Positions 1,034 through 4,427 are shown, counted from the stretch's first letter. The stretch is DNA of 14,665 nt from a virus (IMGVR_UViG_2713896799_000003:1-14665); one strand, 5' to 3'. Notes: generated by a model from the letters alone, not told the origin. Made by a program: numbers and translations.

Positions 1034-2458
1034 ATGGCCTATGAGGCGGTGAAACCGACCCGGACACATAAAGCCCGGCGTGAAAATCGATCTGCTGATC
1101 AACTCAGTAAATATGGTGCGGTTTCCCTGCGGGAGCAGGCCCGTTTTCTGGATATCAATCATGACCTGGTGATTGGTGTGTTTGACAAGCTTGAAGAGCG
1201 GGTGATTGGTGCCAGAGGAATTACTGTGGAGCCTCAGCCATTACGAAAAAACGGGGAAATGGCGGCAGAGCTGGCTGCGGATATCCGCCGGTTGTGGGCT
1301 GAATGGTCCGTGAGTCCGGATGTGACAGGGCAGTATACCCGTCCCGTGCTTGAGCGTTTACTGCTGCGGACCTGGCTGCGGGATGGTGAAGTGTTTGCGC
1401 AGATGGTCAGTGGTGCGGGAAACGGTCTGGAACGGACGGCGGGAGTGCCATTCTGGCTTGAAGCGATGGAGCCGGATTTTGTTCCCATGCACAGTGATGA
1501 ATCCGCCGGGCTGAATCAGGGGGTTTTTCTTGATGAGTGGGGCAGACCGAAAAAATATCTGGTTTATAAAAATTATCCGGTCAGTGGTCGGCAGAGTGAT
1601 ACGAAAGAAATCGCCGCCGGAAAAATGATCCACCTGAAGTTCACTCGTCGTCTGCATCAGACGCGAGGCTCATCCATGTTATCGGGGGTGCTGATGCGGA
1701 TCAGTGCCCTTAAGGAGTATGAGGATGCGGAACTGACAGCGGCGCGTATTGCTGCGGCGCTGGGACTGTATATCCGTAAAGGTGACGGACAGGACTATGA
1801 AGATCCGGGGATCAAAGAAACCGAGCGGGAAGTCCATATCACCCCGGGGATTATTTATGACGATTTGCGCAAGGGCGAGGATATCGGCATGGTCAAATCC
1901 GATCGTCCCAATCCCAACCTTGAAACTTTCCGCAACGGCCAGTTGCGTGCAGTGGCAGCTGGCAGTCGTCTGAGTTTTTCCAGTGCGGCGCGTAACTATA
2001 ACGGCACCTACAGCGCCCAGCGGCAGGAGCTGGTCGAGTCCACGGATGGTTACCTGATCCTGCAGGACTGTTTTATTGGTGCGGTAACCCGCCCGGTGTA
2101 CCGGACATGGCTGAATATGGTGGTTGCGGCAGGTCTGCTGAAAATTCCGGCGGATGTGGAGATGAAGACGCTATATAACGCGACGTATTCCGGTCCGGTG
2201 ATGCCGTGGATCGACCCGGTTAAGGAGGCTGAAGCCTGGCGGATACAGATCCGGGGTGGTGCCGCGACGGAATCCGACTGGATCCGCGCAGGCGGGCGCA
2301 ACCCGGATGAGGTCAAACGTCGCCGTAAGGCTGAAACTGAGGAAAATCGCAGGCTGGGGCTGGTCTTTGATACTGACCCCGCTAACGACAAAGGAGGCAA
2401 CAGTGCCGGAACTGAACAACAGCGTCAGCAGGCCACCGACAGCCAGCATGAAGAATAA
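1034..2458 (+). CDS. Portal protein (lambda-type portal family), 474 aa
   Basis: Uninterrupted 474-codon ORF in the expected position between W and the protease/capsid gene; length and composition typical of lambda-family portals. The exact start is uncertain: ATG 1034 has a weak AAGGG 8 nt upstream, and an ATG at 958 overlaps the W stop but is in a different frame. Confidence 0.8.
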   Translation: MAYEAVKPTRTHKARRENRSADQLSKYGAVSLREQARFLDINHDLVIGVFDKLEERVIGARGITVEPQPLRKNGEMAAELAADIRRLWAEWSVSPDVTGQYTRPVLERLLLRTWLRDGEVFAQMVSGAGNGLERTAGVPFWLEAMEPDFVPMHSDESAGLNQGVFLDEWGRPKKYLVYKNYPVSGRQSDTKEIAAGKMIHLKFTRRLHQTRGSSMLSGVLMRISALKEYEDAELTAARIAAALGLYIRKGDGQDYEDPGIKETEREVHITPGIIYDDLRKGEDIGMVKSDRPNPNLETFRNGQLRAVAAGSRLSFSSAARNYNGTYSAQRQELVESTDGYLILQDCFIGAVTRPVYRTWLNMVVAAGLLKIPADVEMKTLYNATYSGPVMPWIDPVKEAEAWRIQIRGGAATESDWIRAGGRNPDEVKRRRKAETEENRRLGLVFDTDPANDKGGNSAGTEQQRQQATDSQHEE

Positions 2459-4427
2459 ATCCTGGTTCAGGATGCAGGCGGGTGGTCAGGGTGAGGCGGA
2501 TATTTATATTTATGATGAGATTGGTTTCTGGGGCGTCACCGCGAAGCAGTTTGTCAGCGATATGAATGCCCTGGGTGATATCACCCACATTAATCTCCAC
2601 ATCAACTCACCGGGTGGCGATGTCTTTGAAGGCATCGCCATTTTTAATGCCCTGAAAAATCACGGTGCGGCCATTACCGTGTATGTGGATGGCGTTGCCG
2701 CCTCGATGGCATCCCTGATTGCGATGGCCGGTGACACGGTCATTATGCCGGAAAATGCCTTCATGATGATCCATAAACCCTGGGGGATCAGCGGTGGTGA
2801 TGCGGAGAAAATGCGCACTTATGCCGAACGTCTGGACAAACTTGAGTCGGTTATGGTGCCGGTATATGCGCAGAAAACCGGAAAAACCACCGATGAAATT
2901 GCCGCCATGCTGGCGGATGAGACCTGGATGTCCGGTGCCGAGTGTCTGGCACACGGATTTGCTGACCAGGTGACGCCAGCCGTTAAGGCAATGGCATGTA
3001 TTCAGTCAAAACGTACAGAGGAATTTAAAAAGATGCCGGAATCCATCCGAAATATGATCACGCAGCCACACAACAGTGCCCCGCGTGATACCACAGTGAC
3101 AATCCCTGCACCGGCGGTAACAGAACCATCACCGGTACCGGCAGTGTCTGATGAGGCGACCATTCGCGCCCGCGTTATGGCTGAGCAGAAAGCCCGCATG
3201 TCAGGCATTAACGATCTGTTTGCCATGTTTGGCGGGCGCTATCAGGCGCTTCAGGCGCAGTGTGTGGCCGATCCTGACTGTTCGCTGGAAATGGCCCGCG
3301 AGCGCCTTCTGAATGAAATGGGCAAGGAGTCCTCGCCGACCAACAAAAACACACCGGCCCATATTTATGCCGGAAACGGCAATTTTGTGGGAGACGGGAT
3401 CCGCCAGGCGATGCTGGCCCGTGCCGGATTTGAAAATGTCGAGAAGGATAATGTCTATAACGGGATGACCCTGCGTGAATGGGCTCGCATGTCACTGACC
3501 GAGCGTGGTATTGGGGTGGCCAGTTATAACCCCATGCAGATGGTCGGGCTGGCGCTGACGCACAGCACCTCTGATTTTGGCAATATTCTGCTGGATGTGT
3601 CGAACAAGGGGCTGATCCAGGGCTGGGAGGAATCAGAAGAAACCTTCCAGAAGTGGACCCGTAAGGGACGCCTGTCAGACTTCAAAACAGCGTATCGCGT
3701 GGGGATGGGCGGTTTTGGTTCTCTGCGTCAGGTTCGTGAAGGGGCGGAGTATAAATACATCACCACCTCAGATCGCAAGGAGACCATTGCTCTGGCCACT
3801 TACGGGGAGATTTTCTCCATCACCCGCCAGGCCATTATCAATGATGACCTGAATATGCTGGTTGACGTGCCGATGAAGATGGGGCGTGCGGCGAAGGCAA
3901 CGATTGGTGACCTGGTCTACAAGGTGCTGACGGATAACCCGAAACTGTCAGACGGTAAGGCGCTGTTCCATGCCGATCACAAAAATATTGCCACCGGCGG
4001 GATCTCCGTTTCCGGACTGGATGCGGCCCGTCAGATGATGCGCCTGCAGAAAGAAGGCGATCGCGCCCTGAATATCCGCCCGGCCTTCATGCTGGTCCCT
4101 GTGGCACTGGAGACGGTGGCGAACCAGACCATCAAATCGGCCAGTGTGAAAGGGGCGGATGCAAACGCCGGTGTCATTAACCCTATCCAGAACTTTGCTG
4201 AGGTGATTGCGGAAGCGCGTCTTGATGCGGCAGATCCGAAAACCTGGTATCTTGCGGCGGCACAGGGCACCGACACCATTGAAGTGGCCTGGCTCGATGG
4301 TGTGGACACGCCATACATTGATCAGCAGGAAGGTTTCACCACTGACGGCATTGCCACAAAAATCCGTATTGATGCCGGAGTGGCACCACTTGACTGGCGC
4401 GGGCTGGTGCGTTCGTCGGTGGCCTGA
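2403..4427 (+). CDS. Fused prohead protease (ClpP-like) - scaffold-like linker - major capsid protein, single ORF
   Basis: One open frame from 2256 to 4427. Preferred start is GTG 2403, 5 nt after a strong AAGGAGG (2391-2397); alternatives are ATG 2448 and 2472. N-terminal domain (about 2496-2950) has ClpP-like motifs (HINSPGGDVFEGIAIFNAL; GVAASMASLIAMAGD; MMIHKPWG). A Pro/Ala-rich linker follows (about 2950-3420), then a C-terminal major capsid domain (about 3420-4427). Confidence 0.8.
   Translation: MPELNNSVSRPPTASMKNKSWFRMQAGGQGEADIYIYDEIGFWGVTAKQFVSDMNALGDITHINLHINSPGGDVFEGIAIFNALKNHGAAITVYVDGVAASMASLIAMAGDTVIMPENAFMMIHKPWGISGGDAEKMRTYAERLDKLESVMVPVYAQKTGKTTDEIAAMLADETWMSGAECLAHGFADQVTPAVKAMACIQSKRTEEFKKMPESIRNMITQPHNSAPRDTTVTIPAPAVTEPSPVPAVSDEATIRARVMAEQKARMSGINDLFAMFGGRYQALQAQCVADPDCSLEMARERLLNEMGKESSPTNKNTPAHIYAGNGNFVGDGIRQAMLARAGFENVEKDNVYNGMTLREWARMSLTERGIGVASYNPMQMVGLALTHSTSDFGNILLDVSNKGLIQGWEESEETFQKWTRKGRLSDFKTAYRVGMGGFGSLRQVREGAEYKYITTSDRKETIALATYGEIFSITRQAIINDDLNMLVDVPMKMGRAAKATIGDLVYKVLTDNPKLSDGKALFHADHKNIATGGISVSGLDAARQMMRLQKEGDRALNIRPAFMLVPVALETVANQTIKSASVKGADANAGVINPIQNFAEVIAEARLDAADPKTWYLAAAQGTDTIEVAWLDGVDTPYIDQQEGFTTDGIATKIRIDAGVAPLDWRGLVRSSVA

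Follow-up and report, generated by a model that had tools for sequence, protein, structure and literature searches.

The gene at positions 2403 to 4427 of the window, the whole stretch of 14,665 nucleotides of viral DNA that was analysed, is, judged from its sequence, very probably an intact copy of the Gifsy-2-type "tripartite capsid gene" (NCBIfam ID NF045540) of lambdoid prophages, with prohead protease, scaffold, and major capsid protein predicted in one polypeptide. The protein scores 995.6 bits against the NF045540 model (scaf_prot_MCP1, cut-off 475) and aligns to profile positions 2 to 651 of 652. PHROG 133 spans all three thirds of the protein, and PHROG 4523, named "major head and protease protein", matches it too. 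The first-pass annotation had read this region as protease, linker, and capsid encoded as a single polypeptide, a reading that matches NF045540 and the literature on the phages Gifsy-2 and MD8, and the HMM domain searches which it had proposed as a check recovered both the N-terminal peptidase and the C-terminal capsid. The fused protease-scaffold-capsid arrangement is ordinary, being already known since 2010 and routinely annotated, with the RefSeq orthologue named [quoted passage not shown]. The features of the region are:

1034-2458, + strand: lambda-family portal gene, upstream (Pfam ID PF05136, 9e-81)
2390-2397, + strand: Shine-Dalgarno (SD) sequence AAAGGAGG, 5 nt 5' of GTG 2403, within the 3' end of the portal gene
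2403-4427, + strand: predicted tripartite gene for prohead protease, scaffold, and major capsid protein (NF045540, identity to Gifsy-2, open frame)
2496-2972, + strand: ClpP-related head-maturation protease domain, aa 32-190 (NF045542, Pfam CLP_protease, ClpP structures)
2703-2705, + strand: codon of the predicted catalytic Ser101, in GVAASMAS, aligning with the ClpP active-site Ser
2772-2774, + strand: codon of the predicted catalytic His124, in MMIHKPWG, aligning with the ClpP active-site His
3009-3035, + strand: candidate, hypothetical internal ribosome-binding site and Met211 ATG (3033-3035), from codon conservation
3066-3152, + strand: hypervariable Pro/Ala/Thr-rich linker, aa 222-250 (composition, variation among homologs)
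3153-3317, + strand: conserved helical middle (scaffold-like) segment, aa 251-305 (AlphaFold helices, lambda gpC alignment, PHROG 133)
3318-3551, + strand: conserved region joining the scaffold helices to the capsid profile, aa 306-383 (homolog conservation)
3552-4415, + strand: major capsid protein domain, Phage_capsid_4/Mu gpT-like, aa 384-671 (PF25209, PF10124, cryo-EM capsid matches)
4450-4468, + strand: small terminator-like hairpin, GCCC-GAAA-GGGC plus T7, read by eye 22 nt after the stop codon
4515-4841, + strand: head decoration (cement) protein gene, downstream (PF09956, Phage_cement_2, 5.5e-19)

In a frame scan of the window, the + strand frame is open from 2256 through the TGA at 4425-4427. 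Translation from GTG 2403 gives 674 codons followed by the TGA, in one unbroken frame as the first reading of about 675 codons had it, and a precursor of 73.3 kDa. The anti-SD duplex at GTG 2403 (-11.6 kcal/mol) is the strongest among all in-frame starts, 31 of 35 homologous sequences have a start codon in this column of the alignment, and a strong SD precedes the equivalent start in 28 of the 30 homologs that could be evaluated. The RefSeq start, ATG 2448, lacks an SD, and relatives carry L, A, V, or P at this position. Because the start codon and its SD are conserved, GTG 2403 is favored and probably represents the best start, 15 codons 5' of the RefSeq ATG, which would make the RefSeq start too short.

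The N-terminal domain scores 220.8 bits against NF045542 (protease domain, cut-off 120). The Pfam CLP_protease family matches aa 30-176 with an E value of 1.5e-36, where Pfam coordinates follow the 659-aa numbering from ATG 2448 and 15 has to be added for the numbering from GTG 2403, and solved ClpP structures match the domain at up to E 2e-26 in a profile search. Ser101 and His124 are both invariant in sets of 27 and 21 homologs, and the third triad position of ClpP aligns at Asp172/Glu173, both residues being conserved. These results agree with the ClpP-like Ser/His protease that had been noticed at the N-terminus. An identity as cellular ClpP was rejected: the fold and the active site are common to both, but the fusion protein misses the equivalog cut-offs, reaching 64.5 bits against the cellular ClpP equivalog TIGR00493 (cut-off 308.6) and scoring far under the cut-offs of all ClpP PRK-derived NCBIfam models. 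Many database records name the fusion protein "Clp protease ClpP".

The linker at aa 222-250, PHNSAPRDTTVTIPAPAVTEPSPVPAVSD, contains 7 Pro and 4 Ala in its 29 residues, as expected from the Pro/Ala-rich stretch first described, and differs in length and sequence between relatives in the homolog alignment. The middle third of the protein matches PHROG 133 at 8e-56. Structure prediction, also suggested in the first-pass annotation, was of partial use: AlphaFold2 folds aa 251-305 into three helices (pLDDT 57 to 82), the sole moderately confident part, and yields no usable fold elsewhere, the full protein having a mean pLDDT of 34.9 and the capsid region staying below 40, from a shallow alignment of 27 homologs with 74 to 96% identity. 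The following segment, aa 306-383, carries the conserved motif HIYAGNGNF, invariant in its AGNGN part, and the capsid profile as well as solved Mu-gpT-type capsid proteins start near aa 384-390. This segment is likely the site of maturation cleavage and the capsid N-arm.

The Phage_capsid_4 family (Pfam ID PF25209) matches aa 369-656 in the 659-aa numbering with an E value of 7e-56, and PF10124 matches the same domain with E 6e-10. The capsid-domain profile matches capsid proteins solved by cryo-EM, the best being 8rkc and 8rkx (E 2.6e-11), followed by 9jod (E 1.5e-8). At the level of sequence profiles, the C-terminal part is an HK97-type (Mu-gpT) major capsid domain, in line with the initial proposal of a capsid at this end.

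The presence of protease, scaffold, and capsid in one polypeptide would imply self-processing, as the first-pass annotation had proposed. The assembly steps can be proposed from the family and from published Gifsy-2, HK97, and lambda work. Precursors would gather at the portal and build a T=7 procapsid that encloses their protease and scaffold parts, and the tethered protease would then remove everything N-terminal to the capsid domain, cutting somewhere in aa ~306-385. The cleaved fragments would exit, the shell would expand upon DNA packaging, and cement protein trimers would attach to the shell surface.

As a tentative refinement, to which we give somewhat less than an even chance, the gene may be translated into two products in the same frame: the full-length protein, made in minor amount from GTG 2403, and a shorter scaffold-capsid protein that starts at Met211 (464 aa, 50.5 kDa). 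The candidate SD of Met211 reads AAA...GAGG, with the GAGG at 3018-3021. A start codon occupies the Met211 column in 35 of 38 aligned sequences, and the SD-like GAGG lies 11 nt 5' of it, although the SD core spans only 4 bp and is set apart by a long spacer; the sequences are also phylogenetically related, and the conservation counts are therefore not independent. Among 165 amino-acid-invariant columns (35 sequences), K203 (AAA) and E206 (GAG) are the only codon-invariant ones and both lie just 5' of Met211, while the remaining eight invariant Glu columns mix GAA and GAG. Codons 203-209 form the 7-codon window with the lowest synonymous variation (0.263, gene mean 0.52), but the next-lowest window is close behind at 0.293, and a conserved internal SD-like sequence could instead be a translational pause site or an RNA element. 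Three distant homologs (42 to 46% identity) that lack the motif have their own in-frame ATG at aa 221-241, preceded by the SD-like sequences AAGGAG, GAGGAAG, or AGAGGA at the same protease/scaffold boundary. An SD-like stretch, purely of Gly/Asp/Glu codons, also precedes Met137 in the protease domain. Met137 was rejected as an internal start, being inside the protease fold and 3' of both catalytic residues, with upstream codons that vary synonymously. A precedent is lambda nu3, for which an in-frame start inside C is annotated, but no nested gene is annotated in the database records. The lambda Nu3 start is not the equivalent of Met211, a correspondence that was rejected since the Nu3 start falls in the region aligned to aa ~150. 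The putative Met211 product might, with the same reserve, be the abundant HK97 gp5-like scaffold-capsid subunit, with the full-length minority delivering the protease to the procapsid.

The fusion gene lies between the portal gene, the 3' end of which overlaps its start, and the cement gene, 5' of the lambda-like tail genes Z, U, V, G, T, and H. The order portal-fusion-cement is common to Gifsy-2, mEp460, and E. coli relatives. A terminator pattern scan 3' of the fusion gene found none, missing the hairpin at 4450-4468 because of its short stem of 4 bp; in phage mEp460, a rho-independent terminator is annotated at the equivalent place. The 5' end of the portal gene is disrupted by indels at 924-986 compared with relatives. 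Compared with intact relatives, the frame is broken not only at this 5' end but also at the 3' ends of the terminase large-subunit and tape-measure genes, in the W-like gene, and in the homologs of M, L, K, I, and J, and the prophage may therefore be defective, or the sequence may hold errors. That the present copy is a silent relic, an intact gene that has lost its function in a defective prophage unable to form particles, would be compatible with the family assignment and seems rather unlikely. The fusion gene and the next 5.5 kb are clean, and the differences within the gene are mostly synonymous, with 28 synonymous and 2 nonsynonymous codon differences from close relatives in the protease and capsid parts. 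The best match to 1-1040 is 99.0% identical, with about 9 missing single bases and almost no substitutions, a pattern that fits assembly error better than long decay.

Many single-base indels compared with the closest relatives, at 1-990 and 10039-14632, indicate that the sequence is error-rich or decayed in places, but the idea that the fusion itself is an artefact of an unnoticed frameshift or sequencing error linking separate protease and capsid genes is hardly credible and was rejected, as comparisons with relatives show a continuous frame: positions 987-4474 have zero indels compared with E. coli N96, the curated model NF045540 aligns from end to end, the linker keeps the frame in each of the 27 aligned homologs although its length varies, and the same single open frame of 674 to 810 codons is found in 35 of 35 independent loci examined, 34 of them species representatives that range from Enterobacterales through Actinobacillus to marine Gammaproteobacteria, as well as in 82 phage records, with Pseudomonas phages among the carriers. 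The frameshift check named in the first-pass annotation thus came out in favor of one continuous gene.

The further claim that the head module is not lambda-like holds for the capsid domain and the decoration protein, which lack a match to lambda E and D, respectively. The capsid domain shows no sequence match to lambda gpE (hhalign probability 0.1 to 0.2%), and no sequence similarity was found between the Phage_cement_2 decoration protein and lambda gpD. The claim does not hold for the portal, for the terminase of the relatives, which belongs to the lambda gpA family, or, probably, for aa 40-307 of the fusion. This region aligns to lambda gpC 105-398, a stretch that takes in the protease and some of the Nu3 scaffold region, with an hhalign probability of 83% and E 9.5e-6 for a 21-sequence profile and a probability of 4% for a shallow profile. 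For the MD8 homolog, HHpred gives 99.9% against lambda gpC (PMC8508860). The alignments suggest a distant homology between aa 40-307 and lambda gpC/Nu3. Both systems have a serine protease that is ClpP/SppA-type at the clan level, followed by a scaffold segment, and both adjoin a lambda-family portal gene; the capsid gene E is separate in lambda, whereas the fusion carries the capsid domain in the same polypeptide.

The tripartite capsid gene was first described in the Salmonella phage Gifsy-2 (Effantin et al. 2010, Virology 402:355). The Gifsy-2 protein has the same order of ClpP-like protease, middle of ~200 residues, and major capsid protein, with 60% identity over the full length, and both phages share the lambda-type terminase, W-like gene, portal, fusion, decoration protein, and lambda-like Z/U/V/G/T/H tail. 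The two proteins differ in 40% of the residues, in linker sequence and length, and in the 5' end and start-codon context. PMC8814770 gives a T=7 capsid for Gifsy-2, and PMC8538268 places a trimeric decoration protein at its 3-fold axes, both papers citing the Gifsy-2 study. The gp5 of Pseudomonas phage MD8 was inferred by HMM and modelling to be protease, scaffold, and capsid protein in one gene (PMC8508860). The protein of the MD8-related Pseudomonas phage BR144a is 57.6% identical to the fusion protein over the full length, although MD8 and its relatives have another host genus and only the head genes in common. HK97 gp5 is similar in that a scaffold (delta domain) is fused N-terminally to an HK97-fold capsid and is removed by the prohead protease. 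The HK97 protease belongs to a different family, being herpesvirus-assemblin-like and not ClpP-like, and the HK97 shell is stabilized by covalent cross-links rather than by a decoration protein. The title of Effantin et al. (2010) likens the tripartite family to HK97, and PMC8508860 makes the same comparison. Unlike in the tripartite fusion, the HK97 protease (gp4) is encoded by a separate gene (PMC8508860).

The fusion gene is annotated across thousands of genomes, and ~585 complete E. coli genomes contain at least 80% of the query 2256-4427. The DNA identity is 94.6 to 99.4% to E. coli RefSeq prophages and to Stx2, CP-1639, ASU11, mEp460, and cdtI phages, and inducible phages with the gene at 95 to 97% DNA identity include ASU11 (mitomycin C induction) and Stx2a-converting phages. 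The product of the fusion gene is the major capsid protein of a very common group of lambdoid prophages in E. coli and Salmonella, Stx-converting phages among them, and the many records in which it appears just as "Clp protease ClpP" or "head maturation protease" mislead capsid-based classification. If the internal start at Met211 is used, relative initiation would set the protease dose, which would not be fixed at one per capsid subunit, so the protease and the capsid protein, although fused, would still be made in unequal amounts. The family would then be a hybrid of the lambda C/Nu3 nesting and the HK97 delta-domain strategies.

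The fusion gene, which encodes protease, scaffold-like linker and major capsid protein as one polypeptide, is already known: it belongs, as an ordinary member, to a family that has a name and has been studied experimentally; the first-pass annotation was right in its observation and in its main interpretation. Over its whole length the protein shares 60% identity with the product of STM1034.3n from the Salmonella phage Gifsy-2, which is listed as T=7 (PMC8814770). Its RefSeq orthologue bears the product name of NF045540, an NCBIfam model that matches the fusion protein end to end with 995.6 bits (cut-off 475). 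A gene combining protease, scaffold and capsid protein was independently inferred for Pseudomonas phage MD8 (PMC8508860). The DNA identity is 97% to Stx2a-converting phages and CP-1639 and 94.7% to the ASU11 phage (mitomycin C induction), and the protease and capsid parts differ from close relatives in 28 synonymous and 2 non-synonymous codons. A megablast search with 2256-4427, the open frame including the 3' end of the portal gene, finds a match in 2061 of 5426 complete E. coli genomes, with at least 80% of the query covered in 585.

Many phages match only bases 1-1689 of this 2172-base query, at about 80% identity. Some homologs, such as P0043, join N-terminal two-thirds resembling those of the window to a C-terminal third of another lineage, and a mosaic boundary is seen in the capsid domain (about 3945-4427, the last 160 or so codons). 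An IS629 insertion splits the orthologue carried by VT1-Sakai, the Stx1 phage of E. coli O157 Sakai (AP000400.1, 23239-26723).

On the + strand no stop interrupts the frame between 2256 and the TGA at 4425-4427, and the best gene model within it is 2403-4427 with 674 codons, bearing out the coordinates first proposed. The GTG at 2403 is preceded by AAAGGAGG at a distance of 5 nt, and its anti-Shine-Dalgarno pairing (-11.6 kcal/mol) is by far the strongest among the in-frame starts. When aligned with 37 homologous sequences, this column is a start codon in 31/35, with a strong Shine-Dalgarno (SD) sequence upstream in 28 of the 30 evaluable cases, the SD-preceded start being kept across about 30 species. 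Other annotators chose ATGs equivalent to 2307 or 2472, and the RefSeq start in close relatives is the ATG equivalent to 2448, which has no SD sequence upstream and whose position is occupied in relatives by Leu, Ala, Val or Pro codons. Since the conserved, SD-preceded start is GTG 2403 and not 2448, the RefSeq protein of close relatives is probably 15 residues too short.

A frameshift artefact joining two genes is ruled out: the many single-base indels of the window relative to its nearest relatives are confined to 1-990 and 10039-14632, with none in 987-4474, and each of the 35 loci examined, from about 50 full-length matches in a one-genome-per-species scan, contains one uninterrupted frame of 674-810 codons. 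These loci come from Klebsiella, Escherichia, Buttiauxella, Rahnella, Sodalis, Erwinia, Pantoea, Morganella, Proteus, Providencia, Xenorhabdus, Actinobacillus and Pleionea, and from a Chromatiales MAG and a bivalve symbiont. Likewise, 82 phage records encode 80% or more of the protein without a break.

Outside this region, the indels break frames that are intact in relatives, namely those of the terminase large subunit, the W-like gene, the portal 5' end, the tape-measure 3' end and the homologs of M, L, K, I and J. The differences of 1-1040 from its best match are almost all absent bases and not substitutions, a pattern that resembles assembly error more than decay.

The three parts first read from the sequence are supported by the domain searches. 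With residues counted from GTG 2403, Pfam places CLP_protease at residues 45-191 (E 1.5e-36), and the NCBIfam protease-domain model NF045542 scores 220.8 against a cut-off of 120, while the protein falls far under the cut-offs of all cellular ClpP models in NCBIfam. Ser101 (GVAASMAS) and His124 (MMIHKPWG), aligned with the catalytic Ser and His of ClpP, are invariant in two homolog sets. The capsid part matches Phage_capsid_4 (residues 384-671, E 7e-56) and more weakly Mu gpT, and its profile matches Mu gpT-type capsid proteins solved by cryo-EM (8rkc and 8rkx, E 2.6e-11; 9jod, E 1.5e-8). The linker at residues 222-250 is rich in Pro, Ala and Thr and is the sole region varying freely in length and sequence among homologs. 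PHROG 133 matches all three thirds, and PHROG 4523, "major head and protease protein", also matches. AlphaFold with a shallow alignment gave a poor overall model (mean pLDDT 34.9), with three helices at residues 251-305 (pLDDT 57-82).

Directly after the protease domain lies a candidate second start:

3009-3035, + strand: candidate internal ribosome-binding site with Met211 (ATG 3033), marked by codon-level conservation

The features of this stretch would fit a possible nested in-frame start, which would yield a scaffold-capsid product of 50.5 kDa and so parallel lambda Nu3, nested in C. Met211 is kept in 35 of 38 sequences, with AAA CGx xxx GAG GAx upstream. Among 165 amino-acid-invariant columns (35 sequences), only K203 (AAA) and E206 (GAG) are codon-invariant, the remaining eight invariant Glu columns being GAA/GAG mixtures. 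Synonymous variation over codons 203-209 is the lowest of all 7-codon windows (0.263; next lowest 0.293; gene mean 0.52). In each of three distant homologs without the AAA..GAG motif, a separate SD-like sequence accompanies an in-frame ATG at residues 221-241, the same domain boundary. However, the SD sequence is short and its spacer is long. Chance codon choice also places an SD-like stretch ahead of Met137, and none of the database records shows a nested gene.

Beyond the architecture, catalytic residues, conservation and gene context described here, the proposed maturation follows the biology of the family and of HK97 and lambda. Precursors would build a T=7 procapsid on the portal, enclosing the protease and scaffold parts, and the protease would then cut away everything N-terminal to the capsid domain. 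The cleavage site is probably within residues ~306-385, because capsid profiles and solved relatives begin near residues 384-390. Shell expansion would accompany DNA packaging, and cement-protein trimers would bind the shell.

The gap between capsid and cement genes contains two hairpins:

4450-4468: hairpin 1, GCCC-GAAA-GGGC followed by T7, terminator-like and matching a terminator annotated in mEp460
4480-4498: hairpin 2, an 8-bp stem ACAGCCCC/GGGGCTGT directly before the SD sequence of the cement gene

In an mEp460-like lineage (loci L005 and L006, each 3001-6480, from E. coli GCA_012637905.1 and SRR11977923), one base has been lost 3 nt downstream of the GTG start, which joins the portal frame to the protease-capsid frame and gives a 1159-aa portal-protease-scaffold-capsid ORF. 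This form is present in at least 11 protein clusters with intact flanking genes. It may represent a null allele, or else a polyprotein of four parts may be tolerated.

The tail genes Z, U, V, G, T and H belong to lambda families. GGGAAAG (7337-7343), a heptamer with a frequency in the window close to chance, stands directly before the gpT ORF, close to where the gpG homolog (6930-7361) ends. It is the slippery sequence at which the -1 frameshift of lambda G/GT takes place, so this programmed frameshift has probably been kept.

The first-pass view of a lambda-like tail behind a head that is not lambda-like stands for the tail and for the capsid and cement proteins, which show no similarity to lambda gpE and gpD, respectively, but not for the rest of the head. 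The portal is of the lambda family (PF05136), as is the terminase in relatives (gpA family). A shallower profile of the fusion protein matches lambda gpC only weakly, and a 21-sequence profile aligns residues 40-307 with gpC residues 105-398 (probability 83%, E 9.5e-6), a stretch that takes in the protease and some of the Nu3 scaffold region; the MD8 homolog reached 99.9% by HHpred (PMC8508860). Packaging, portal and, apparently and distantly, protease-scaffold thus resemble those of lambda, whereas the capsid protein is of the Mu-gpT/HK97 type. Given a lambda-like terminase (in relatives) and portal and an apparent distant likeness in protease-scaffold, but capsid and cement proteins without a match to gpE or gpD, the head module is, as judged from sequence comparison, a hybrid of lambda-like parts and a Mu-gpT/HK97-type capsid protein.
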